This document shows positions 1 through 12,278 of a stretch of DNA of 56,958 bases, piece by piece. This DNA comes from Thermoplasmata archaeon (GTDB lineage: Archaea > Thermoplasmatota > Thermoplasmata > RBG-16-68-12 > JAFNFQ01). Numbering within the stretch: position 1 is the first letter of the stretch; each line of letters starts with the position of its first letter. Made by a program: the position numbers and the translations under genes. The notes beneath the pieces were generated by a model. It saw only the letters and a list, made by a program, of their open reading frames with translations, made no database searches and was not told the origin of the DNA. The stretch spans positions 1-56,958 of the forward strand of contig JBGPQV010000021.1 in NCBI GenBank assembly GCA_041489255.1. Direction: 5' to 3'.

Positions 1-523
1 GATTTCTACGGACTCCCGTGCGGCAAATCTTTAGAAGTCTCGGAGGCATCACTTTCTCCCCCTGGCCATAATGACCCCCTCCGGTCTGGAAATAAATGCC
101 GACGTCCCAGATATCCGAGCCGCGGGCCAAGACATGCACCTTTGGCCCCGGGCAAGTCCGGACGGAAACCACGGACTCGGTCGCTTGGTCCGAAGATTCC
201 GGAGATCCTTAAATCGCTCTCAGGAAGCTATGTCACGATCTCGGGGAGTGCCGGAGGATCCTCCCCGGGGCCGCCCCTCGTCCTCGGGCGTGTCCTGAGC
301 TCCGAGTGAGTCACCTGGAATCATTGAAGATCCTTCCGAGGCTCGGTTCCGATGTTGAATATCGAGGGACGGGGGGAAGCCAATAGGGAGAAGCGGAAAG
401 CTTGACCTAAGAGCGAGTATGCACATGAATGTCTTACCCGATGTTCTCAGAACCGCCGCTCCATTTCCCCCATTGCCGTAGCTCTCAATTTCAATGTTCC
501 ACGCGAATTGTGCATAATCTGTT

Positions 524-3508
524 CTAGCGTGAGTTGGCCAAGCCCTCCAATTTCTCACGAATGGCCTCATGCATTAGGCCAACTAGCGCTTCTGCATCCC
601 CTGTGTTCAGGCCTAGGACCTGGAGAAGTCCCACGTCTATTTGCTTCCTCGGGCCAAACTTATGGCTGAATTGATCAAGAAAACTCGGCCATTCGACGTC
701 CTGGAATCTTTCGAAGATCTGAAGCAACCTTTCGCGCTGAGATTTGGACAGCTTCCTGGGGTCGAGCATCGGCAGCTTGTTCAACACTTTCTTGTCAAGT
801 CGTCCCCATGAACCCTCAGTGACTGTCCGCTCAGCCAGCAGGTTGATGAGATAACACGAACTGTTGGCCCATAGAGCCAGAATCTTCTCCTCATCAACCT
901 TAGTTCCGCGAAAGCCATACAGATCGCCTGCCACAAATACTGGGTCAGAGGTTACACATGCCAGGAGGCACATGCCCGGAGTCACTATATTCCCCTTATA
1001 GGATACCATGAGTCTGGAATGATCGGATGCCGTTTTCTTCTCCCAATCGCGCTTCAGCAATTTTGACTTCTCATGAGCTGCTTCACCGTAGACATGATTG
1101 AGCAGGGGCTCAATGTGGCGGCTAAATCTGCGGACGGTCATATCCACAATCTCGTCGGCATTCAGCTTGTTGACGCCTGCAAACCGTCTCAAGTACGGGA
1201 TGGTTTCTCGGACGGGAAGATTAAAGGTTTGCCCATCGCTTATATCCTCTATCTGGATTATTCCATGCTTTCGACCTACTACAACCATGCGGTCGTGTTC
1301 CTTATGTGTCCTCTCTTTGGTCGATGAGAACAGGATGGCTGCTCCACCATATGCTTTGAGGCCATGACCAGTCTCTTCAGGGGAATCCTTGAACACTCGG
1401 AAAGCCTTTCCGATAAAGGCCCGCCATCCATTACGCTTAAAAACAAGCTCTGTAGATGCAATAAACGGAACATTGAGGACTTTCTCCAGTTTCTTCATGC
1501 TGACGGAAAAAGCGTGCGACAGGCCTACCACAAGCTTTGGCAGCGTACTATTCTTGAACAGCAATTCTGATTGCTCTTCTTCCCGAACGATGAAGAGATC
1601 ATTCGGTGGCGGGACATGCCCATCCCGTAGTTGACTCGCTAAGGCCTTCATTCGGATTAGATCTTCATTGCTCCAATGATGCGGTCCACGTTTCAGGCCA
1701 ATCAGCTTGAACTTATGATTTGGATTAGGGGTCCTCTTTTCCGCAACCAGCAAGATTTCCGTGATGTGCGTGTCGTCGGAGAATGCGCAGCCGTCGATGC
1801 CTGCGACGATGTACAGGATGGAGTAGTGCTGATTGAGGAAATTCACGATCGGCTCGAAATACTTTCCTGAGAAGGTGGTGAGAGGTAATACTGCTGCCAG
1901 CCGTCCGCCCGTTTCAAGAAACATATCTGCCAAAAGGATGAATGGAATTTGCAGGCTCCAGCGTCCCTCGAGACAACGCCTGTACTTGCCGTTATCGTTG
2001 AACGATAGCTCTATCGTTCGTCTATAGGGAAGTGCCATGTTGCTGCAACTTGTGAATGGAGGATTCGTGATGACGAGGTCTACCTTGTGAAGTTGAAATG
2101 GCTTTCTGTCCTTCTCTTCGCCAAGATTCACTGTGCCCGCAGTAGCATACGCTTGAGGGGCGAGTTCGACTCGGCCTTGTTCATTGAAACCCTCGAGTTT
2201 TCTTTGCTTGAAACCCTCGCGTATTATAGTCGTGGCCACATCAACCATGTCTCCAGGTTTCTTGGTCGTACTGTCTTCAACGCCGATTCGGACTTCATTC
2301 GTGAATATCAATGGCTCTTGAAGCGCCAAATGGACTGCCGCCAAGTGCGCCACAAATGCCATTACATCAATCCCTGTCAGATCTTCTTCTACAAACCTGC
2401 GATGGATTTCAGGAATTTCATCTTGATTCTCAAGTAGGTCCTTCTTTCTTCTATAGGCTGCAACAAGCAGCGTGCCACTGCCGCATGCAGGATCAAGAAC
2501 CTGCGCATCAGTCTTGTCAACCGCTAGGCGGGCCAGAAAATCCGCCGATGCAGGCATCGTGAAAAACGCTCCCAATGGCTTTCTGAAGCTGAGAGGAATT
2601 AGTTGATGAAACACATTCCCAATAATGTCCCTATTGCTTCCTAATCCTGGGATTAGTGCTTTGATGGCATTCACAACTTTGAGGGCACCATTCTGGCCAA
2701 CTTCCCCCTCAAGGCATGTGCAAACGTCGACCCCAAAAATCGGCCTGTAATTCCTGCCGAGGACGCGATCAAAGTACTTCGACTTGATAATGCTGGGATT
2801 CGATGCGTCCGCCAATTCGATCGGGTCATAGAGCTTTGCCTCCGCGAGGATTCCGTAGAAGAGAGTTTGATTAACGAGGAGATAGCCTGCAGCCCTGCGC
2901 AATGCTCCGCTGATTTCATCTTGGTCTAACTCGTAAGCCAAAACTGAATCAAAGAAATCCTTGCCTCCGAATACCGCCTTCAAACGGTTGTCACTTACTC
3001 CGACGAGTGCGCTCGAAATCTCATTGACAGCTTGAGACAGTACTCTAATTGCTGAGACATCGGCAGGCTCAATCTCCTTAAGTGCTTCCTCCCATTTGCC
3101 CATCACGATATCCTGAATCTTGTTCGCAATTGCTTCTAGAGACTCAAGGCTCCAGCTATGCGCCATGTGATGCCTGTTCGCTAAGGTCCAGAGTATATTG
3201 CGATCCTTTGCCGTCTTGGCGTATACGACGGCGAAGACTTCTCCGAGAATTGTTGTTTCCCCTATCAAGGTTTGATACTCTTGAGCACTCGCAACCGCCT
3301 CACCCTCCTTTTCCTTCCCTTGCTTTGCGCTAATCAGATGCGTCTTGCCCCCGTACGCGAATGCACCGTCTGGTTTCCGCGGTCTGCCCTTAAGAATAGG
3401 GAAATGCCGTTCGAAATCCGCTTTGGAGAACCCAACATTATCAAGATGACCCAGCAGTCTCACGGTGAGTGTATTCTCTTTCGGATTACCCCCAGTTTGA
3501 GATTTCAT
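524..3508 (-). CDS. Type IIG-like fused restriction-modification enzyme (N6-adenine DNA methyltransferase with N-terminal PD-(D/E)xK-like region and C-terminal target-recognition region)
   Basis: Motif I VLDPACGSGTLL, motif IV NPPF, LGAFFT motif X, N-terminal RKPDG..LISAK..AQEY. Start uncertain: ATG 3508 (MKSQ) preferred, ORF is open to 3661. Confidence 0.85.
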   Translation of the reverse strand: MKSQTGGNPKENTLTVRLLGHLDNVGFSKADFERHFPILKGRPRKPDGAFAYGGKTHLISAKQGKEKEGEAVASAQEYQTLIGETTILGEVFAVVYAKTAKDRNILWTLANRHHMAHSWSLESLEAIANKIQDIVMGKWEEALKEIEPADVSAIRVLSQAVNEISSALVGVSDNRLKAVFGGKDFFDSVLAYELDQDEISGALRRAAGYLLVNQTLFYGILAEAKLYDPIELADASNPSIIKSKYFDRVLGRNYRPIFGVDVCTCLEGEVGQNGALKVVNAIKALIPGLGSNRDIIGNVFHQLIPLSFRKPLGAFFTMPASADFLARLAVDKTDAQVLDPACGSGTLLVAAYRRKKDLLENQDEIPEIHRRFVEEDLTGIDVMAFVAHLAAVHLALQEPLIFTNEVRIGVEDSTTKKPGDMVDVATTIIREGFKQRKLEGFNEQGRVELAPQAYATAGTVNLGEEKDRKPFQLHKVDLVITNPPFTSCSNMALPYRRTIELSFNDNGKYRRCLEGRWSLQIPFILLADMFLETGGRLAAVLPLTTFSGKYFEPIVNFLNQHYSILYIVAGIDGCAFSDDTHITEILLVAEKRTPNPNHKFKLIGLKRGPHHWSNEDLIRMKALASQLRDGHVPPPNDLFIVREEEQSELLFKNSTLPKLVVGLSHAFSVSMKKLEKVLNVPFIASTELVFKRNGWRAFIGKAFRVFKDSPEETGHGLKAYGGAAILFSSTKERTHKEHDRMVVVGRKHGIIQIEDISDGQTFNLPVRETIPYLRRFAGVNKLNADEIVDMTVRRFSRHIEPLLNHVYGEAAHEKSKLLKRDWEKKTASDHSRLMVSYKGNIVTPGMCLLACVTSDPVFVAGDLYGFRGTKVDEEKILALWANSSCYLINLLAERTVTEGSWGRLDKKVLNKLPMLDPRKLSKSQRERLLQIFERFQDVEWPSFLDQFSHKFGPRKQIDVGLLQVLGLNTGDAEALVGLMHEAIREKLEGLANSR

Positions 3509-3856
3509 CCCTTCGGGGATAAGAGCGACGGGCTTATCGGCTTTTCGGAAAGGTGTACGCAATGAACTCCGGACTACGTTCTGGTCAGAATCAGCGTTTT
3601 CATCGATGATCAGGTTCTTTCTCATATCAAATATCAATTGAACTATGGGCAATCCGTCCATCAGAAGATGAAACCATTCATTTGAACTGCGATTGGATGT
3701 ATCAGGCAGCCTTGTTTATACACGGTGTGATAGGCCATGTTGCCAACCCACACGCAATAAATGCGGCACTTAACTCGACCCCGGCGTTCGCGTTTGAGTT
3801 TGTGCACAGGATTATTAAGCGGAGCCGATCCGCCGTGAGTTGCGATTGCTGGATTT

Positions 3857-3930
3857 TCCAGTCATCAATATCTATTAATCCCCTCCCCTCCTACACCTTC
3901 CCCGCATGCACCCCAGTCAGCGCATCTACT
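3857..3930 (+). repeat. 74-bp imperfect direct repeat, copy 1
   Basis: tccagtcatcaatatctattaatcccctcccctcctacaccttccccgcatgcaccccagtcagcgcatctact; 68/74 identical to 7106..7179, ungapped. Confidence 0.95.
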
Positions 3931-3974
3931 TCTTCAAAATTCCCAACCCCAAAATACATTGCCGAATTGACGGC

Positions 3975-3992
3975 ATGCTCTTATAACAGCAT
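3975..3992 (+). promoter_or_regulatory. TATA-like box (CTTATAAC) flanked by a short inverted repeat ATGCT/AGCAT; putative promoter/operator of the TM-SMC operon
   Basis: ATGCT-CTTATAAC-AGCAT, about 25 nt upstream of GTG 4009 (leaderless spacing). Confidence 0.4.
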
Positions 3993-4008
3993 ACCCTTAC
4001 ACGAGACC

Positions 4009-4674
4009 GTGGCTTCGGATGGTACCGGTTTGTCTGCTTTTGGCGGGGAAGTAATCGCGCCCGCATTCTTATTCACCATTTGTCTAACCATCATGATATT
4101 CTATCCGGCCGGACTGCAAATCCTTTCGGTCGAGGGATTCTCCATGATCGTCGTCACATTCATCTCTTGCCTGGTCATTGAACGAATCAACAGCAATAGA
4201 GAGATGAGTCGAAGAATCGGAGTGTTTCTCCTAGGGAGATTCTATAGAAAGGAGGACCGCCGTTTCAGGGAGAAATTAAAATCGCGACAGAATGCTGAGA
4301 GCTTTACGGATACAGAGAGACCTCTGGCCTACATCTATGAAAAAATCATGAACGACGGCGATAGACGTCAAGTAGATAAAATGGAATTGCGAGCTAGGCG
4401 TCACTTCAATTTCATCATTGCTACCCTGCTATTGTTAGTCCTTGATGTGGCATTTATAATTCTATATCTTGGGATTGGTGTCAATCTCGTAGTTGAACGC
4501 TTTCTCTGGAATGCACTAGGCTCGCTATTGGCACTTTTCGTGCTCATGACGTCTTATTATTCGTTTGGGGATACGCTTAAGGAGTTGACCGCCATTTATC
4601 TTCAATGCGTTATGAGGGGACAGAATGATTGCGAGGGAATCAGTCGAATCGATTGCGAAGGAACAAGGAATTGA
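4009..4674 (+). CDS. Hypothetical 4-TM membrane protein (candidate defence effector)
   Basis: Four hydrophobic stretches (VIAPAFLFTICLTIMIFY; FSMIVVTFISCLVI; FNFIIATLLLLVLDVAFIILYLGI; FLWNALGSLLALFVLM) around a charged loop. Start set at GTG 4009 because the longer ORF from 3682 runs through the repeat. Overlaps the next gene by 50 bp. Confidence 0.7.
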   Translation: MASDGTGLSAFGGEVIAPAFLFTICLTIMIFYPAGLQILSVEGFSMIVVTFISCLVIERINSNREMSRRIGVFLLGRFYRKEDRRFREKLKSRQNAESFTDTERPLAYIYEKIMNDGDRRQVDKMELRARRHFNFIIATLLLLVLDVAFIILYLGIGVNLVVERFLWNALGSLLALFVLMTSYYSFGDTLKELTAIYLQCVMRGQNDCEGISRIDCEGTRN

Positions 4675-6502
4675 AGGGAGCGAATGGTGGCGGGCGTTTT
4701 CTCCGAAGTTGCATGTGCTTCTGGACAAGGCCCCCTTTTCATCCAAACCTTTCAGGATTTCTGAGTTTCGATTTCATCGATTCTCAAGCCCAGAGTATTG
4801 TGGGGTCACGAAGGCGGTAGGAGGAGGGAGCTGCCTTATCTGGGGCGAACACAGAACCGGCAAGAGTACGACCTATGATGCATTTCTTTTCGCGCTTGCA
4901 GGGAAAAAGGGCCCACTGCGAGAGGAATTCGGAAAGTACTCCTTAGAACTCGATTTATCGAATGGATCAGATAAGATTAGCATCATGCGCGAGTACCAAA
5001 AGGGACTCACGGTGAAATGTGAGGGAAATGCATATCAAGGAGACGAAGCGACTTCGATTCTCGAACAAAGGCTGGGCATACACCCTGACGATTTCCTGAT
5101 ATTGAGGGCCATGACTCTACCTCAACGAAGTGAAACAGACTCTCTTTTCCTGCGTGCGAGTCAACCTAGAGAACTGCAGCAGATAGTGCTCTCAATAGGC
5201 GCAGATAGACGCCGATCGTCCATCTTGAAGCTTCTTGAGGAGGAATTCAGGGAAGTGGAAAACGAATTGACTCGGAATACGGCGCAAACGACTGATATGA
5301 TGGCACAAAGAGAAGAAACCAAAGACAGGATAGGCTTCACGGAATATCACATCAAGGAAATGAAGGATTTCTCGTCGAAGTATGAATCAGGTGAACTGCG
5401 CGAAATCGTCAACATTGTCAACAAGCAACCCGAAGTGGAGAAGGAATTGAGGGAATTGGAGAATGCTTTCGAAGAATTATGGAAAGAAGACGCCCAGTTG
5501 AGAAAGAGAATCGGTGTTGCAGGCCTAAGATATAAAGACAAGAAGCCAGAGGAGGTTGTCCAAGACGTTCTATCAAGAATAGTGTGTCCAATCTGCGAGC
5601 ATGGGATAGATCTCACGAAGATGGAGAATCGGCTTCAAGGCCTGACTAGATGTCCTATGTGCAATGAATCGTATAGCTGGGAACTCCTCAAGAAGGCAGA
5701 GGCGAAGATTGAAGAGGCAAAAAATATCGCCAATTGGAGAAAGCGACTCGGCGAGATAACGCTCGAGAAGACAAGGATTGAAAAGCGAAAGAAGGATTTG
5801 GGGATTAAGTGTTCCCACGAAACCGTGAGACGGATTGTCAGAAACGGATGTAAGGAATCGGATTTCAAGGAGATTATCGGACGGATTGAGCGAGCTGAAA
5901 GCCTATTGGCGTCGGATTCCGATTCGGTCAAGACGCAGAGCCGCAACATAAAAGAATTGAAAGATGAACGCCGGGATTTAGACAATCGGATGATTGTGAT
6001 ACAATCCCTGAAAGATCGAACTGTGAAACCGACTGAATTGGCCGAAGTTATACGAAGTCTAATGGACAACATGAACAAGCACTACACAGCTATTACGGCC
6101 AGTTCTACGAGATTGGAATATAAGGAAGGCGAGATTTACCTCGTTGAAGATTATGGTGGATTTATATCCTCCAGAAACGCGAATGACAGATACAATGTGA
6201 GCGTTGGCGAAAGACGCGCCCTTGATGCATCCTTCCTATTATCGGTACTAGCGCTGAATCAAGAGCGCCGTTATTCCAACATTGAATTCGCCATCCTGGA
6301 TGACCCAAGCGAGGGGATTCTCGGATCTTGGAAGGGGAATCTGATTGCGCTCTTGGGAGAAGCATCAAGGAGCTTCCAATTAATATGCACAACTTACGAT
6401 GATGCCCTCAATAAAGCTGGTTTTGAAAACAAGGCTGCATTGATGAAGCAGATCAAACTTCCTCAGTTCATCGAACCTTCTCCCTCAACAGCTTCTTCTT
6501 GA
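4625..6502 (+). CDS. Rad50/SbcC/SMC-like coiled-coil ABC ATPase
   Basis: Walker A GEHRTGKST, Q-loop LPQ, long coiled coils with CPIC and CPMC at the apex, signature VSVGERR, Walker B FAILDDP. Confidence 0.9.
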   Translation: MIARESVESIAKEQGIEGSEWWRAFSPKLHVLLDKAPFSSKPFRISEFRFHRFSSPEYCGVTKAVGGGSCLIWGEHRTGKSTTYDAFLFALAGKKGPLREEFGKYSLELDLSNGSDKISIMREYQKGLTVKCEGNAYQGDEATSILEQRLGIHPDDFLILRAMTLPQRSETDSLFLRASQPRELQQIVLSIGADRRRSSILKLLEEEFREVENELTRNTAQTTDMMAQREETKDRIGFTEYHIKEMKDFSSKYESGELREIVNIVNKQPEVEKELRELENAFEELWKEDAQLRKRIGVAGLRYKDKKPEEVVQDVLSRIVCPICEHGIDLTKMENRLQGLTRCPMCNESYSWELLKKAEAKIEEAKNIANWRKRLGEITLEKTRIEKRKKDLGIKCSHETVRRIVRNGCKESDFKEIIGRIERAESLLASDSDSVKTQSRNIKELKDERRDLDNRMIVIQSLKDRTVKPTELAEVIRSLMDNMNKHYTAITASSTRLEYKEGEIYLVEDYGGFISSRNANDRYNVSVGERRALDASFLLSVLALNQERRYSNIEFAILDDPSEGILGSWKGNLIALLGEASRSFQLICTTYDDALNKAGFENKAALMKQIKLPQFIEPSPSTASS

Positions 6503-6944
6503 CGTCAACTACGCGTTCATCCTTAAGAATTTGAGAGAGTGATGATCCTTTGTGGGATGCTAATTCGTCTTCGATTTCTGCGTTAACCTCCTCATACGAC
6601 GGTTCCAAGGAGAGGCGGGCTCTGACTCCTTGAATGAATCTCCTGCCGAAGGTCGTAATGCCAAATGACCTGTTCGTCTCATCCCCCGTATCTCGGTAGA
6701 TTCCGAGCATGAAGTTAGTTTCAAGGTCGTAGGAGGCACCAGGATCTCTTGGCCCGAAGTATCCGCGCTCAAAGTCCATGGATTGCAGGACGGCATGTTT
6801 GCCCTTCAACCTTCTACTGCAGAAGAATATCATTTTCTCCAATCTCGTTACACCATCTACGTCCCCCGACTCGTTAGCAGTTCCGTCCACAACTGAGTAT
6901 ATCCATAGTATATCTTGAAACGAAACCATCGATTGGTGATTCAT
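6468..6944 (-). CDS. YwgA / SocA-Panacea-like winged-helix protein
   Basis: GVTRLEKMIF...F..GYFGP...FGITTFG resembles the GxT(R/K)LQK..F / YGP / Y.LT..G pattern of this family. Confidence 0.6.
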   Translation of the reverse strand: MNHQSMVSFQDILWIYSVVDGTANESGDVDGVTRLEKMIFFCSRRLKGKHAVLQSMDFERGYFGPRDPGASYDLETNFMLGIYRDTGDETNRSFGITTFGRRFIQGVRARLSLEPSYEEVNAEIEDELASHKGSSLSQILKDERVVDVKKKLLREKVR

Positions 6945-7105
6945 GCAATGGGTCTAAATAGGTTACGGAGCAGAAAAAAATGGACAGCCACCTGTGCAAC
7001 ACACAATTCTGAGCAAATATCGGACACTTGGTTTCAACTATAAGTCTGAAATCTAACGGGATCTCACCCCGATTGGACTGGGCGGTTGGACGAGGACAAG
7101 GACGG

Positions 7106-7179
7106 TCCAATCATCAACATCTATCAATCCCCTCCCCTCCTACACCTCCCCCGCATGCACCCGAGTCAGCGCATCCACT
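7106..7179 (+). repeat. 74-bp imperfect direct repeat, copy 2
   Basis: tccaatcatcaacatctatcaatcccctcccctcctacacctcccccgcatgcacccgagtcagcgcatccact; 6 mismatches to 3857..3930. Confidence 0.95.
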
Positions 7180-7449
7180 GCACCAAGAGCGAGAAGCTGA
7201 AGGCTCAGAACTCGCCACTTCATCGCTGACCGACAGGATGCTGTCCGTTGCGGCCAAGGACGCCTGCCCGATGGCTCTGACGATCTGGTCATCGCATCGA
7301 CGCAGCTCATCCCCCTCCTTTCCGCGATGATCCTTCTTGCAGACAGCGGTGAGGTCGAATCAGCACCGCCATCTAGGCGCGCAAGCACAATCGTGCGAAC
7401 TCGCAGATACATCGAGGGAGCCTCTATCTGTTATGCGAAATGCCCTTCG

Positions 7450-7508
7450 GAAACGTATAAATACACACGGGTTTATCGGCGGGTTACTTCACTATCTCGG
7501 AGGAGGTA
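7450..7508 (+). promoter_or_regulatory. BRE/TATA promoter and Shine-Dalgarno of the surface protein gene
   Basis: gaaacgTATAAATA at about 7450-7463; GGAGGAGGT just upstream of TTG 7512. Confidence 0.55.
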
Positions 7509-7511
7509 GAC

Positions 7512-10436
7512 TTGAGACTAAGAACTGGAGTTTTCGTTAGCTTGATGACAGCGGCCATGCTAATGTCTCTGCTGGCGCCCCTGACTCGGGCATTCATACC
7601 CGAGCCGTACGAGCTTTATGGGGTCGCAAAGCTCGACACCGGCGTGGTTCTTGATGATGGCTCGCCAATAAGGTCCTTTGTCGACGGAGTCGACTACTCG
7701 AACAAGACGTCAGTGTTCAGCCGACCGGGCAACACCGACGGGTACTTCGACATCGACACCTACGGCAACTACAGAACGAACGCAACCGACCCGGGCACTC
7801 CCTGGATAAAAGAGGGCGCCGATGACAACGAACCGATCATGTACAGTTGGGGCGATTTCAGCAACAACACGCAGATCGGCGGCCCGTCACAGCCCTGGCT
7901 ACAGGCCAAAGTGTTCCAGGAAACGCACGACTGGCAGACCGGTCTGCCGCCGCAGGCGGGAGACCTGAACCTGGCGCCCGACGCCCAGCAGCCACCGCTG
8001 CTGAAGATCTACAGCGTGACGACGAACAGCACGTATGCGCCACTTACTGACTACGTCTGGCTCTGCAACCCGACCAACCAGAACGTCGACGCTTCGCAGT
8101 TCTACCTGCAGAAGGATGTCCTTGGGGATGTCAACGGACCGCAGGTGCAGGTGCCCGTCGGTACCATTGGACCCTACAAGAAGTACTTCGTCGACACGGC
8201 CAGTCTGGACTACTTCAACGAGGCAGGCGACAACCTGAAGCTCGTCTGGAAGAACACGGCCAGTCCGACCGCGGATTTTGGCGGCAATGACATCGTGCTG
8301 GACAGGGTCGAGTTCAACAAGTCCGCCGGTGGTGCGCTCAACTGGGAGCCGGGAAACACGATAATGAACAATGAGCCCGCGCCAGACAGAGGTTTCCAGA
8401 TCAACAGATCCTCGATCTGCCGCGACACGAACTCAGTGCAGCAAGATTTCTTCATCGAGGTCGAAACAAGGTTGAACTTCCGGCCGACAGCGCCGGACCC
8501 GGTGTGCATCGAGGGTCTGTGCAACTGGAATGTCGACAGCAGGCTGTTCCACCTCGTCAAGCTGACCAACTTCCGTATCAATTGGACGCATCATGACCCG
8601 GATGGCGATCCCCAAACTCAGGCCAACATCCGCATATCAACTGCACCTAACGGCGTTGGTGTGATGTGGAATGGCAATGTGGTCGGAGCGACTGCGTTCA
8701 TTGATTATACCGGCCTCCCATTGCTGAAGGGCAACAATTATTGCTTCTCTGTGCAGACCAAGGACGCCGCTCCCGTCTTCGGCCCATGGGGAGAACTGTG
8801 CTTCCGCACCAACGGTTTGCCGGCACCGATAAACAAGCTTTGGCCATCCAACGGCTGGCAGACTTCTCCCAAATCCGACCAACAAGTGTGGTGGACTCTG
8901 GCCACTGACCCGGACCCGGGCGATCTTCTCAACTACACCTGGAAAGTCAACACGACGGCATCCATGGTCGCTCCGCTCTACAGCGGCACGACCACCACCA
9001 ACACCTCGACCCCGTTCCTGACACTCCCGACATCGACCTACTTCTGGTGTGTAAACACCAGTGACGGGTGGGAGTGGTTGAATGGCTGCGGGTCGACTTG
9101 GCAGTTCACCACCTCGACGCCCCCGCCAGCTCCGACTGCGACGGACCTGGAGGTCGACGGCCATGCGTTTGCCGACGCATACCTGCAGCACGTCACGAAC
9201 CGCGTCCCCGTGTTCACATGGACGTTCAACCCGACGACTGGCAGGACGCAGACAGCCTTCCATATCCAGGTCTACCGGCAAACAGGTCCCCTCCTGATGT
9301 GGGAACTCAACAACACCGGAGCTGGCGGTGACCTGTCAACGGCCACCTACAACTCGGACAGCACCGGCACCGCCCTCGTGAACGGCACGTGCTACTACTT
9401 CCAGGTGAAGGTCCGGGACAGCCTCAGCCCGCAGCTATGGAGCGTCGACTGGGGCACGCCGCTGGACTTCTGCATCAATACGCCGCCACCGACGCCGACG
9501 CCTCTCGCCCCGGCGGATGACAGCGCCCGGCTTGTGGGTTCGACTATCCTCTACTGGAGCACCGAGATTGATGCGGACACGGGCGACGTCGTCACGTACG
9601 ATTACTGCATCGACACCGCCATTGATCCGCCATACCCGACCTGCAACATCGTCCACACCACGGCAACCGCCAACAACTCGGCCGCCTTCACGACTGTCGC
9701 GAACAACTACATCTGGGCCGTGAGGGCTTACGACAGCTACGAATATTCCGCCTGGAGCACGATTTGGAACTTCACGGCGTACACAGCGCCGACCAACACC
9801 GCACCGACGATCACCATCACCGCGCCCGCTGGTGGAGAACGCCTCCTGCAGGGGAGCACGTTCACAATAAGATGGACGATGCACGATGACCAAACCGCCG
9901 ATTCCGCCCTTGTCGTTGTCGTGACGTACAGCGTTGGCGGTGGGGCACCAATCACGATAGCCACGAACTGGGTCGGGGTAACATCCGGCTCGTGGACGGT
10001 GCCGTCCGATGTGGACTCGTCCAACGTGAGGATAACCGCCACGGTCACCGACACGGGTGGCCTGACTGGCACGAGCCAGTCGCCGCAGTTCACGATCTAC
10101 AAAGAGCCCGCGGGGGAATTCCCACTGATGTGGGTGCTCCTCATAATCATCATCGTGGTGGTTTTGGCGATCGTCCTCCTACTCTTGATGAAACGCAGGA
10201 AGCCGAAGGAGGAGGAAGAGGCGGCCGCGCCGCCAGCGGCAGAGGAGGCACCGCCAGCCGAGGAAGAGGAGATGGTCGTGGAGGAGGCACCAGCGCCCCC
10301 GCCAAAGGCCGCCCCGAAGCCGGCAGTGGTACCAGCCGCCACAAAGGCCCCGACGAAGACCAAGGAATGCGCGAGTTGCGGCACGATAGTGAGCGTGACG
10401 GACAAAGAATGCTTCATGTGCGGGGCCAAGCTGTAG
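7512..10436 (+). CDS. Large membrane-anchored cell-surface protein (signal peptide, lamin-tail-like and FN3/Ig-like modules, C-terminal TM, Pro/Ala/Glu linker, zinc ribbon)
   Basis: N-terminal hydrophobic signal, four W..D.D...Y.W/F.V modules, many N-x-S/T sequons, TM WVLLIIIIVVVLAIVLLLLM-KRRK, terminal CASCG..CFMCG. Confidence 0.85.
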   Translation: MRLRTGVFVSLMTAAMLMSLLAPLTRAFIPEPYELYGVAKLDTGVVLDDGSPIRSFVDGVDYSNKTSVFSRPGNTDGYFDIDTYGNYRTNATDPGTPWIKEGADDNEPIMYSWGDFSNNTQIGGPSQPWLQAKVFQETHDWQTGLPPQAGDLNLAPDAQQPPLLKIYSVTTNSTYAPLTDYVWLCNPTNQNVDASQFYLQKDVLGDVNGPQVQVPVGTIGPYKKYFVDTASLDYFNEAGDNLKLVWKNTASPTADFGGNDIVLDRVEFNKSAGGALNWEPGNTIMNNEPAPDRGFQINRSSICRDTNSVQQDFFIEVETRLNFRPTAPDPVCIEGLCNWNVDSRLFHLVKLTNFRINWTHHDPDGDPQTQANIRISTAPNGVGVMWNGNVVGATAFIDYTGLPLLKGNNYCFSVQTKDAAPVFGPWGELCFRTNGLPAPINKLWPSNGWQTSPKSDQQVWWTLATDPDPGDLLNYTWKVNTTASMVAPLYSGTTTTNTSTPFLTLPTSTYFWCVNTSDGWEWLNGCGSTWQFTTSTPPPAPTATDLEVDGHAFADAYLQHVTNRVPVFTWTFNPTTGRTQTAFHIQVYRQTGPLLMWELNNTGAGGDLSTATYNSDSTGTALVNGTCYYFQVKVRDSLSPQLWSVDWGTPLDFCINTPPPTPTPLAPADDSARLVGSTILYWSTEIDADTGDVVTYDYCIDTAIDPPYPTCNIVHTTATANNSAAFTTVANNYIWAVRAYDSYEYSAWSTIWNFTAYTAPTNTAPTITITAPAGGERLLQGSTFTIRWTMHDDQTADSALVVVVTYSVGGGAPITIATNWVGVTSGSWTVPSDVDSSNVRITATVTDTGGLTGTSQSPQFTIYKEPAGEFPLMWVLLIIIIVVVLAIVLLLLMKRRKPKEEEEAAAPPAAEEAPPAEEEEMVVEEAPAPPPKAAPKPAVVPAATKAPTKTKECASCGTIVSVTDKECFMCGAKL

Positions 10437-10447
10437 GCCCTGCACCC

Positions 10448-10472
10448 TTTCCATTTTTCTTTCTTTTCATTC
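10448..10472 (+). terminator. Oligo-T archaeal terminator
   Basis: tttccatttttctttcttttcatt just after the stop codon. Confidence 0.5.
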
Positions 10473-10529
10473 CCCCAGCGAGAGCCATCTGGAAAGTCTA
10501 TTAACCCCCGCCCCTCTTCGCCCCCCGAG

Positions 10530-12278
10530 ATGAAGAAGAGCGAGGACTTCGGCGAATGGTACATCGAGGTCATCGACAAGGCGAACCTCAGCGACAAGAG
10601 GTACCCAATCAAGGGGATGAACGTCTGGACGCCTTACGGCTGGGCTGTGATGAGGCGCATTGACGAGTTCATCCGCCAGGAGATGGCGGCAACTGGCCAC
10701 GACGAGGTCTGCTTCCCCCTGCTCATCCCCGAGACGGAGTTCAAGAAGGAGTCGAAGCACATCAAGGGGTTCGAGGAGGGCGTCTTCTGGGTCACCCACG
10801 CGGGGCTCAACCCCCTCGACGTCAAGCTGCTCCTGAGACCGACCAGCGAGACGGCGATGTATCCCATGTTCGCGCTCTGGATCCGGTCGCACGCGGACCT
10901 GCCGTTGAAGATCTACCAGATAGTGAACGTGTTCAGGTACGAGACGAAGGTGACCAGGGCGTTCATGCGCGTCAGGGAGATACACTTCTTCGAATCACAC
11001 ACATGCCACGCGACCTTCGAGGAGGCCGAGGCGCAAATCCGCGAGGACCTGGAGATAATGGACCGGGTGGCGCGGCGCCTTGCATTGCCGTACCTGTTGA
11101 TGAGGAGGCCCGAGTGGGACAAGTTTCCCGGGGCGTTCTACACGACGGCGGTGGACGTCTACGTCGCGGGGGCCGGCAGGACCCTGCAGGTCGGCGGCAT
11201 ACACCAGTACAAGGATAACTTCGCGCGCGCCTACGACGTGAAGTTCGAGAAGGATATCTCCCAAGCGGACTTCGCGGCCTACATCGCCAGACTCCTCGAG
11301 AGTATGGGCTACGACGACATCAGGTTCAGGGCGGTCTCACCCGACGCGGTCCTGGCCAGGCCTGACGTCGAGGCCAAGAAAGGCGGGAAGCGCGTGGCGG
11401 TGGAGGTGAAGCGCAGGATCAAGGATGATGCGGACGGGAAGGCCCTGGAAGCGATCTTCGACCAGATGAAGGATCCATCGATCCATCACATCCTGATAAC
11501 CCACGACGTGCCGAAGGAGATGGCGGAGCGACTGACGGCCAAAGGCGTCGAAATCTGGAACGAGACGAAGGTGGCCGAGATGGCCAAGGCGGCGGGGCAG
11601 GAGCCGCTCGTATTCCACCAGTACGTGCACCAGACCACCTACGGGATGAGCGAGAGGCTCATCGGGACGATAGTGGCGGTGCACGGCGATGATAAAGGGC
11701 TGGTCTTCCCGCCGGACGTCGCCCCGACGCAGATCGTGGTCGTCCCGATCCCCGAGAAGGGCAGGCAGGAGATCATCGCAGAGGAGTCGCGGAGGCTCAG
11801 GGACGAGCTTGCCGGCATCTTCCGCGTGCACCTCGACGACAGGGACATCCGCCCAGGCAGCAAGTACTACGAATGGGAGGCGAAGGGCGTCCCCCTCAGG
11901 ATCGAGCTGGGACCGAAGGACCTGCAGAAGGACGTCGTCACTGTCGTTCGGAGGGACACGTCGATAAGGTCGACGTTGCCGAGGAAAGACTTGGTCTCCA
12001 GCGTGGCCAAGCTCCTCGACGCGATACAGGGCGGCATGTGGAAGCGCGAGGAAAAGAGGCTGATAGACTCGATCGTGGACGTAAAGCACATGTCCGGGTT
12101 CAAAGAGGCGCTCAACCGCGCGTCCTGGTGCGGCTCAGAGGAATGCGGGCACGAAATCGAGAACAAGACCGGGATGAGCGTCCTCGGCACTCCCGCCAAA
12201 GAAGAGAAGCCGGAGGGGCCGTGCGTAGTCTGCGGCAAGCCGGCGAAGCTGGTCATCTATGTGGCCAAGACCTTCTAG
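10530..12278 (+). CDS. proS: Prolyl-tRNA synthetase (archaeal/eukaryotic type) with an in-frame ~120-aa nuclease-like insertion
   Basis: LRPTSET, motif 2 FRYETK..FMRVREI, motif 3 QTTYGMSERLIG, anticodon-binding domain, C-terminal WCGSEEC/CVVCG zinc domain; 582 aa versus the usual ~460-480. Confidence 0.97.
   Translation: MKKSEDFGEWYIEVIDKANLSDKRYPIKGMNVWTPYGWAVMRRIDEFIRQEMAATGHDEVCFPLLIPETEFKKESKHIKGFEEGVFWVTHAGLNPLDVKLLLRPTSETAMYPMFALWIRSHADLPLKIYQIVNVFRYETKVTRAFMRVREIHFFESHTCHATFEEAEAQIREDLEIMDRVARRLALPYLLMRRPEWDKFPGAFYTTAVDVYVAGAGRTLQVGGIHQYKDNFARAYDVKFEKDISQADFAAYIARLLESMGYDDIRFRAVSPDAVLARPDVEAKKGGKRVAVEVKRRIKDDADGKALEAIFDQMKDPSIHHILITHDVPKEMAERLTAKGVEIWNETKVAEMAKAAGQEPLVFHQYVHQTTYGMSERLIGTIVAVHGDDKGLVFPPDVAPTQIVVVPIPEKGRQEIIAEESRRLRDELAGIFRVHLDDRDIRPGSKYYEWEAKGVPLRIELGPKDLQKDVVTVVRRDTSIRSTLPRKDLVSSVAKLLDAIQGGMWKREEKRLIDSIVDVKHMSGFKEALNRASWCGSEECGHEIENKTGMSVLGTPAKEEKPEGPCVVCGKPAKLVIYVAKTF

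Follow-up and report, generated by a model that had tools for sequence, protein, structure and literature searches.

In the available parts of the literature on Lamassu (DdmABC; ABC-3C), the ATPase LmuB is described as having a Walker A motif Gx4GK[S/T], a Walker B motif of the type hhhhDD (long) or hhhhD[Q/S/T/E] (short), and zero to two CxxC motifs (PMC12663957). The LmuA effectors named in the portions of text accessible to us are soluble enzymes only (PMC12663957, PMC10586767, 10.1101/2022.05.11.491447), the word "membrane" has no occurrence in the available text of PMC12663957, and Lamassu is reported there in only seven complete archaeal genomes. A stretch of 56,958 nt of Thermoplasmata archaeon contig JBGPQV010000021.1 (GCA_041489255.1, positions 1 to 56,958 of the forward strand), hereafter called the window, was found to carry three genes between two direct repeats, encoding a four-helix membrane protein (P0002), an LmuB-like ATPase (P0001) and a small convergent protein that appears to be distantly Panacea-like (P0003). 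Judged from its sequence, this trio seems to be a variant, as yet undescribed, of an antiviral defence system that is already known. No description of it was found in literature searches on LmuA, LmuB or Lamassu combined with transmembrane proteins, or in one on ABC-3C; supplementary tables may list such architectures. The host genome is archaeal, its small-subunit rRNA scoring 1487 bits with the archaeal model vs 1076 bits with the bacterial one.

In Lamassu, LmuB is an ATPase of about 600-800 residues with a coiled coil, LmuA is an effector made up of an enzymatic domain at the N-terminus and a docking domain at the C-terminus, and protection through abortive infection requires both. The locus resembles Lamassu in its ATPase of approximately 600 residues, the coiled coil of which is short and carries CxxC motifs at its tip; the length of 625 residues, the Walker A and Walker B motifs and the two CxxC motifs all lie inside the LmuB ranges of PMC12663957. 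The locus is likewise a small multi-gene operon set in a defence-island context, with an overlap between the ATPase gene and the partner gene upstream of it. It differs in that the upstream partner is a membrane protein without a match to an LmuA model (a comparison of hidden Markov models, HMMs, only), in that no gene lies between this partner and the ATPase, whereas lmuC is normally encoded between lmuA and lmuB (it is absent in some clades), and in that the third gene is convergent and apparently Panacea-like, not LmuC-like. The Walker B motif is of mixed character, being of the "long" type (hhhhDD) in a protein of "short" length. An earlier note on this DNA, made from its letters alone, had suggested a Lamassu-like or new system, and had named a small "middle component" as a part of Lamassu. 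The suggestion holds for the ATPase but does not extend to P0002 and P0003, which match no LmuA or LmuC model of PADLOC at E≤0.1, and the third gene, being convergent, is no such middle component.

The LmuB-like ATPase and the spread of the trio

All three open reading frames (ORFs) of the earlier note are present where it placed them (Table 1). The 3' end of the membrane protein gene and the 5' end of the ATPase gene overlap by 50 nt, and the two are probably translationally coupled; the 3' end of the ATPase gene overlaps the convergent P0003 gene by 35 nt. The reading frame of the membrane protein is open over 3682-4674, the part before 4009 crossing the left repeat. Its start is probably the GTG at 4009, because the N-terminus of the homologue in an outside locus (L009, see below) aligns from there. 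Beyond the trio, no gene-like ORF of at least 50 residues was found between the two direct repeats. The cassette is thus bounded by repeats that enclose only these genes, as first described, but the repeats are not private to it: they are part of a genome-wide family (R) derived from the 5' end of coaBC. The G+C content is 0.45-0.48 in the cassette and 0.48-0.51 in the neighbouring methylase gene, vs 0.588 for the contig.

In PADLOC the ATPase matched six families, of which the LmuB model PDLC03859 ranked first with an E-value of 2.5e-16 and a single stretch over positions 28-590 of the 611 in the profile. A second LmuB model gave 3.8e-11, and AriA, mad8 and PbeC ranked behind LmuB. The only Pfam match was a sub-threshold one to AAA_23. 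In an AlphaFold2 (AF2) model of the ATPase, with a predicted local distance difference test score (pLDDT) of 78.4, two head halves are linked by long antiparallel helices which form a folded-back coiled coil. Comparison of this model to the PDB with Foldseek (1332 matches) placed a Pyrococcus Smc head first (1e-11), followed at ranks 2 and 3 by the Salmonella LmuB chains 9hqu_A and 9hqx_B (E-values of 3e-11 and 8e-11, about 660 columns, TM scores of 0.37-0.42). A YydD-YydB model stood at rank 4, then came many Rad50 chains, and a further LmuB chain, 9ux7_A, was at rank 16. The best PADLOC match together with the LmuB chains at Foldseek ranks 2 and 3 bears out the earlier description of a Rad50-like ATPase of the Lamassu type. 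We conclude that P0001 belongs to the Rad50/SbcC/LmuB radiation. By size, tip motifs and best HMM match its sequence would be called LmuB-like; membership in LmuB proper is unproven.

A search of 5.8 billion proteins, in which the family amounts to 16 clusters with the window's own included, returned 15 full-length relatives at 39-42% identity. The alignment of these 15 with the window's protein (16 sequences) had a mean column identity of 72%, and the statements on invariance below and in Table 1 refer to it. In addition to the Walker and cysteine motifs listed in the table, the Q-loop residues L165, P166, Q167, R168 and S169 are invariant, as are G528 and E529 of a signature-like S-x-G-E motif, in which S526 is nearly invariant. 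The Walker B aspartate is followed by D instead of E, and no histidine was seen by eye at the expected position of the H-loop (Q585 L586 .. T589 .. D592). In the AF2 model the cysteine motifs lie at the apex of the coiled coil between two long helices, the tip comprising approximately 26 residues with its four cysteines; so modelled, the apex would be like a zinc hook or a zinc ribbon.

With Rad50-Mre11/SbcCD the ATPase shares the ATP-binding cassette (ABC) head, the antiparallel coiled coil and the cysteine tip, along with sequence and fold matches to Rad50 heads. The trio differs in having a membrane partner and a rare, patchy distribution, and P0001 in its length of 625 residues, its short coiled coil (in the model) and its two CPxC motifs per chain. 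Unlike Smc-ScpAB, the tip of P0001 is a short four-cysteine element and no hinge, and no ScpA-like gene is present. The absence of an adjacent Mre11/SbcD or ScpA/B gene, to which the earlier note had pointed, was confirmed, the neighbours being a methylase/restriction-modification (RM) gene and a gene for an Ig-domain surface protein.

The arrangement of the trio was followed in loci outside the window. The contig L009 (3.7 kb, binned as Thermotogota) has a membrane protein gene at 190-918 which overlaps an ATPase gene with its start at 878 or 905 and its end at 2752, and then a convergent small gene at 2759-3238. All three genes are found in L010, where the membrane gene has an interruption and the contig stops within the small gene, while L011 has the ATPase and the small gene, and L012 the membrane gene and an ATPase running to the contig end. 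A membrane protein gene lies upstream of the ATPase in three of the three outside loci which reach there (L009, L012, L010), and a small convergent gene lies downstream in all three that extend that far (L009, L011, L010). Order and orientation are the same in 4/4 outside loci, as far as the contigs extend. The trio is therefore a conserved module, the partners being present in every outside locus reaching their positions. The outside loci represent two ATPase sub-clades, which share about 65% identity between them and 40% with the protein of the window. In L009, the small protein (2759-3238) is one residue off a protein, P0023, labelled as Methanosarcinales archaeon in a public source, which points to a binning error or a very recent transfer between domains; because of this near-identity the host taxon of the L009 clade is uncertain.

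The family profile of the ATPase was present in one of the 401 genomes of a sample of the phylum, namely the window's own, and nothing else in that genome matched it at E≤0.01. The same-genus genome G401 gave only a 23-bit match. In the phylum of L009's genome it was present in 1 of 151 genomes, and a scan of genome contigs yielded one locus. No ATPase relative was found in viral contigs. From these comparisons of sequences and the low G+C we read the trio as a rare, patchy, accessory and horizontally mobile module.

The membrane protein and the small convergent protein

Four hydrophobic segments were located in P0002 by a crude hydropathy scan, at approximately residues 14-33, 42-58, 134-154 and 164-183. 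The central loop (residues 58-133, about 76 residues) is basic, with 21 K/R vs 13 D/E, and the C-terminal tail has 37 residues; based on the positive-inside rule, the loop and both termini would be cytoplasmic. P0002 shares 27-29% identity with its homologues of L009 and L012, which are likewise encoded ahead of the ATPase. No family of note was found for it in Pfam, NCBIfam or PHROGs, its profile gave nothing below an E-value of 0.5 against the PDB, a protein search returned the window's own entry as sole match, and the ESM Atlas offered unnamed clusters only. Prediction of a complex of ATPase residues 8-618 with P0002 and P0003 resulted in a score of 0.10 (mark 0.32), which gives no answer and was not used in either direction.

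Eight close relatives of P0003 were identified, and the family profile led to 14 representatives in 1.84 billion proteins. A profile including distant members (A4) matched the MarR-type winged helix-turn-helix (wHTH) protein TcaR, in its winged-helix region, with an E-value of 2.9e-4, in addition to other wHTH proteins. Three relatives (A5) were compared to the Pfam family SocA_Panacea (PF13274), giving 26.1, 22.2 and 20.5 bits (cut-off 25.7), and hhalign aligned the close family of P0003 (A2) to A5 over the N-terminal 87 columns with a probability of 90.6% and an E-value of 1.3e-6. In the ESM Atlas, the cluster at rank 20 has PF13274 on 21% of its members. A "GPV" motif is named as the signature of the Panacea domain in the available text of PMC8832971; in the 18-sequence A4 alignment, G64 is nearly invariant and P65 invariant. 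Foldseek leads from the AF2 model of P0003, all with E≥0.14, were winged-helix proteins, regulators of the MarR, PadR and HxlR types, DarG and ScpB (E 1.2). The assignment of P0003 as a distant Panacea-like winged-helix protein is reasonable but indirect, and the "Panacea-like wHTH" of the earlier note can be retained on the hhalign match to relatives that hit Panacea and on the TcaR match.

In a whole-genome search with the A4 profile, weak relatives of P0003 were present in 31 of the 401 genomes sampled from the phylum (this count includes the genome of the window), and the three A5 relatives come from among them. The closest distant one (L033:3338-5586, on G151:C27; 225 residues, E 6e-16 with the family profile) has a weak Panacea match and adjoins a 282-residue protein without a Pfam match and a 214-residue HTH_3 protein, with no adjacent ATPase. 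A conserved four-gene set was observed on contig C22 of the window's own genome (L038:3308-6016, minus strand) and in another genome of the phylum (L036:5657-9740). It encodes a 197-residue Panacea-domain protein, a PIN-domain protein, an MmcB-like/PD-(D/E)XK-like protein of 131-141 residues and a 425-residue protein without a Pfam or PADLOC match, and may be a toxin-antitoxin (TA) or defence module.

Proposed function and alternative explanations

By analogy with Lamassu, and at somewhat less than an even chance in our estimation, the trio would be a Lamassu-like module for abortive infection, in which the effector is a membrane protein and the third component resembles an antitoxin. The ATPase would bind ATP and sense foreign DNA ends or replication intermediates, as is supposed by that same analogy. 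It would hold or gate P0002, which on activation would damage or depolarise the membrane so that the infection is aborted. P0003 would restrain the membrane protein in the manner of an antitoxin, or repress the operon, or both.

Several results weigh against this proposal. Smc and Rad50 score about equal to LmuB in Foldseek. When the family profile of the ATPase was searched against PDB sequences, no LmuB chain was matched at E≤1 and Smc3 and Rad50 heads were the only matches (best E 6.3e-7). A PHROG SbcC-like family matches the ATPase as well (2.3e-8). Because of these PDB-profile, Foldseek and PHROG results, P0001 could be a separate Rad50/SbcC offshoot and not an LmuB. Neither P0002 nor P0003 matched any family in PADLOC at E≤0.1, those for LmuA and LmuC included, and two of the three components of Lamassu are therefore unrecognisable here. 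As regards P0003, no direct Pfam match was obtained at E≤0.1, the link to Panacea passes through intermediates of which two of three are under the Pfam cut-off, the AF2 model is poor (pLDDT 60.7), and the gene, in contrast to lmuC, runs convergently and is transcribed on its own. Finally, the outside loci recovered number four, all on short metagenome contigs, and the trio context covers two outside sub-clades of the ATPase, a third deep lineage (P0004/P0005) being beyond that coverage.

If the Lamassu-like reading of the trio is true, sensors of the Lamassu type could act through a membrane effector as well as through soluble enzymes. Swapping of effectors is known for CBASS, Pycsar and retrons, and would extend to immunity based on SMC proteins; an SMC-type sensor would be coupled to a Panacea-like protein, and an archaeal example would be added to Lamassu. 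The general weight of the finding is limited by the rarity of the family, and modularity of this kind, with a membrane protein taking the effector's place, is to be expected. A more far-reaching version, possible though on balance unlikely, is that of a new branch of SMC immunity in which an LmuB-like sensor gates a pore-forming P0002, a Panacea-type antitoxin restrains it, the principles of Lamassu and PanAT are thereby combined, and the cassette, carrying a promoter, moves via recombination at the coaBC-derived repeats in an integron-like fashion without an integrase, by which the genus would reshuffle its genes for defence and surface proteins.

A different explanation would make the trio a tripartite TA or addiction module which stabilises the cassette or the island, with P0002 as the toxin, P0003 as its direct antitoxin and the ATPase as an accessory or regulator. 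According to the available text of PMC8832971, Panacea antitoxins neutralise membrane toxins (three of the nine validated Panacea-neutralised toxins are membrane-spanning disruptors, and PanA binds the toxin directly) and three-gene Panacea loci exist. P0003 appears to be distantly related to Panacea, the trio has in common with PanAT a small protein, apparently a distant relative of PF13274 and with a G-P pair, and a membrane protein in one module, and around the cassette there are others of TA-like or defence type, AbiE for example. The gene order argues otherwise: the trio is not a bicistronic pair, the putative antitoxin gene is convergent, with the 1.9-kb ATPase gene standing between it and the toxin gene, whereas PanAT loci are defined by a spacing of at most 100 nt (PMC8832971, in the part available), and it is the ATPase gene, not the small gene, which overlaps the membrane gene. 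P0003 is below Pfam detection. Within the module, no part is larger or better conserved than the ATPase, with the column identity given above. We judge this explanation to be rather improbable.

A smaller chance is given to a membrane-anchored, SMC-like DNA sensor or clamp, in which P0002 would be an anchor or a sensor at the entry site, the ATPase, with or without the type IIG enzyme, would act on DNA, and the wHTH protein would be a regulator. The SMC/Rad50-like architecture of the ATPase, suited to handling DNA, is consistent with this, as are the matches of the wHTH protein to MarR-, PadR- and HxlR-type regulators and the type IIG gene which adjoins in both lineages with known flanks. That gene, however, lies outside the repeat-bounded unit and differs in orientation between the window (divergent) and L009 (same strand), and no nuclease domain was detected in the trio with Pfam or PADLOC. 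That P0001 is a Rad50/SMC paralogue with a housekeeping role in repair or in the handling of chromosomes, placed by chance beside unrelated small genes, as its matches to Smc3 and Rad50 heads and to the SbcC-like PHROG might suggest, is very improbable given a family found in one of 401 genomes and not in the congener, the low G+C, the want of an adjacent Mre11 gene, the retention of the trio across very distant hosts, and the lack of any other match to the family profile in its own genome at E≤0.01. Part of the probability was assigned to none of these explanations.

The coaBC-derived repeat and the surroundings of the cassette

The positions of the features are given in Table 1, where C followed by a number denotes another contig of the window's own genome.

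Table 1. Genes, protein motifs and repeat copies at the trio locus and elsewhere in the same genome
Feature	Position	Strand	Remarks
Membrane protein gene (P0002)	4009-4674	+	221 aa, GTG start, four-helix membrane protein, proposed effector
ATPase gene (P0001)	4625-6502	+	625 aa, LmuB-like SMC/Rad50-family ABC ATPase
Small gene (P0003)	6468-6944	-	158 aa, convergent, putative distant Panacea (DUF4065)-like winged-helix protein
Walker A	4844-4867	+	aa 74-81, G-x4-GKS; G74, G79, K80 and S81 invariant
Two CPxC motifs	5585-5662	+	aa 321-324 and 343-346; C321, P322, C324, C343, P344 and C346 invariant
Walker B (hhhhDD)	6287-6304	+	aa 555-560; F555, L558, D559 and D560 invariant
Left R copy	3857-3937	+	diverges from the family after about 3930; corresponds to C7:8032-8105 at 92%
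Right R copy	7106-7203	+	98 nt with 94% identity to the coaBC copy; also present at the orthologous locus in G401
R copies elsewhere	C7:2585-2714, 4408-4527, 8032-8167; C3:785-870, 8329-8448		own genome
Further R copies	C36:2320-2442, 3417-3478; C34:856-943; C6:127195-127339; C31:1185-1244		own genome
Type IIG-like DNA methyltransferase/RM gene	524-3661	-	1045 aa; context, outside the trio

The two repeats of the window are 89% identical over 81 nt (3857-3937 vs 7106-7186), or 92% identical over 74 nt (E 2e-24). Members of family R were located at 11 places of the genome at E≤0.001 and at 13 with a more sensitive blastn search, all 13 copies being within 8.5 kb of a contig end. The repeat matches coaBC at C7:8081-9277, of which it includes approximately 65 nt from upstream of the gene and as many as 87 coding nt (at most the first 29 codons); the coaBC product contains Flavoprotein and DFP domains, the former beginning at residue 18. 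Short ORFs of 26 codons (3906-3986) and 24 codons (7155-7229) open at the coaBC start codon inside the two window copies, resemble coaBC at first and then diverge, the left one stopping 22 nt ahead of the start codon of the membrane protein gene; these ORFs may encode leader peptides or be remnants. The consensus of R folds at -2.2 kcal/mol with 0 covarying pairs among 10 copies, that is, without a conserved hairpin. Rfam gave nothing at E≤1 in positions 1-12000 and a single tRNA in the whole window; R is not a known RNA, because these scans found none there.

In the same-genus genome G401 the order is R, one cassette, R and then coaBC, and a gene of this cassette is 98.7% identical to one on C7 of the window's genome (G000). 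Compared to G401, C7 has an extra cassette of 3.5 kb between R copies. The G401 contig orthologous to the right flank of the window (G401:C62) terminates inside R, and for this reason the right copy is considered to be old at this locus. The short cassettes separated by R beside a fixed core gene, with an extra cassette relative to the congener, are reminiscent of integron cassettes. Integrons have an intI tyrosine recombinase gene beside the array and attC sites that form imperfect hairpins. The cassettes with R differ in that no integrase is adjacent, in that R is without a conserved hairpin and corresponds to the promoter and first codons of coaBC, and in that the genes of R-flanked cassettes are in both orientations. 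An integrase was considered as the mover of the cassettes and rejected, no integrase gene being near any R copy; the matches to the tyrosine recombinase family PF00589 (two on C18, one at C6:19888 and one on C14) are not near a copy. We infer that R is a recombination hot spot at which cassettes are exchanged, either site-specifically, with the help of a trans-acting factor, or by plain homologous recombination. The family offers a concrete, testable case of how variable islands, with genes for defence and for surface proteins, are assembled in an archaeal genus.

A type II restriction enzyme and its methylase are encoded beside R at C36:174-2236 (PADLOC REase_II, E 4.5e-71), and an AbiEi/AbiEii pair at C3:938-2349. 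Other genes at R copies encode an N6_N4 MTase (C7), a histidine kinase and proteins without an assigned role. Genes for large surface proteins with PKD, fn3, CARDB or SBBP domains adjoin R copies on C7, C36, C34 and C31.

Contigs containing the cassette were present in four other sediment sequencing runs, with 0 differing letters among the pieces listed; no RNA run was among those listed as containing it. The left junction is bridged by contigs of two records (X2 record 2, 3301-3929; X3 record 12, 3017-3929), and none of the four joints listed in the run contigs skips the cassette. These contigs say nothing about excision, because contigs drop rare variants.

The RM gene reported earlier as adjoining the trio was confirmed by its methylase domains in Pfam (N6_Mtase, E 5.7e-11; Eco57I, 2.2e-6; MmeI_Mtase, 3.2e-6) and by PADLOC matches to MTase_II (9.8e-19) and REase_MTase_IIG (7.2e-10). 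In L009, the 63 codons that precede the membrane protein gene correspond to the very end, on the C-terminal side, of a type IIG enzyme model (E 3e-6), the orientation varying as mentioned above. A defence context of the trio is supported by these sequence matches, a type IIG gene or fragment adjoining it in both the window and L009. The right neighbour of the cassette (7512-10436) encodes a surface protein of 974 residues with Ig-like domains (Rha78A-like, Big_7), the C-terminal part of which shows a hydrophobic stretch, an acidic and proline-rich tail and a terminal zinc ribbon.

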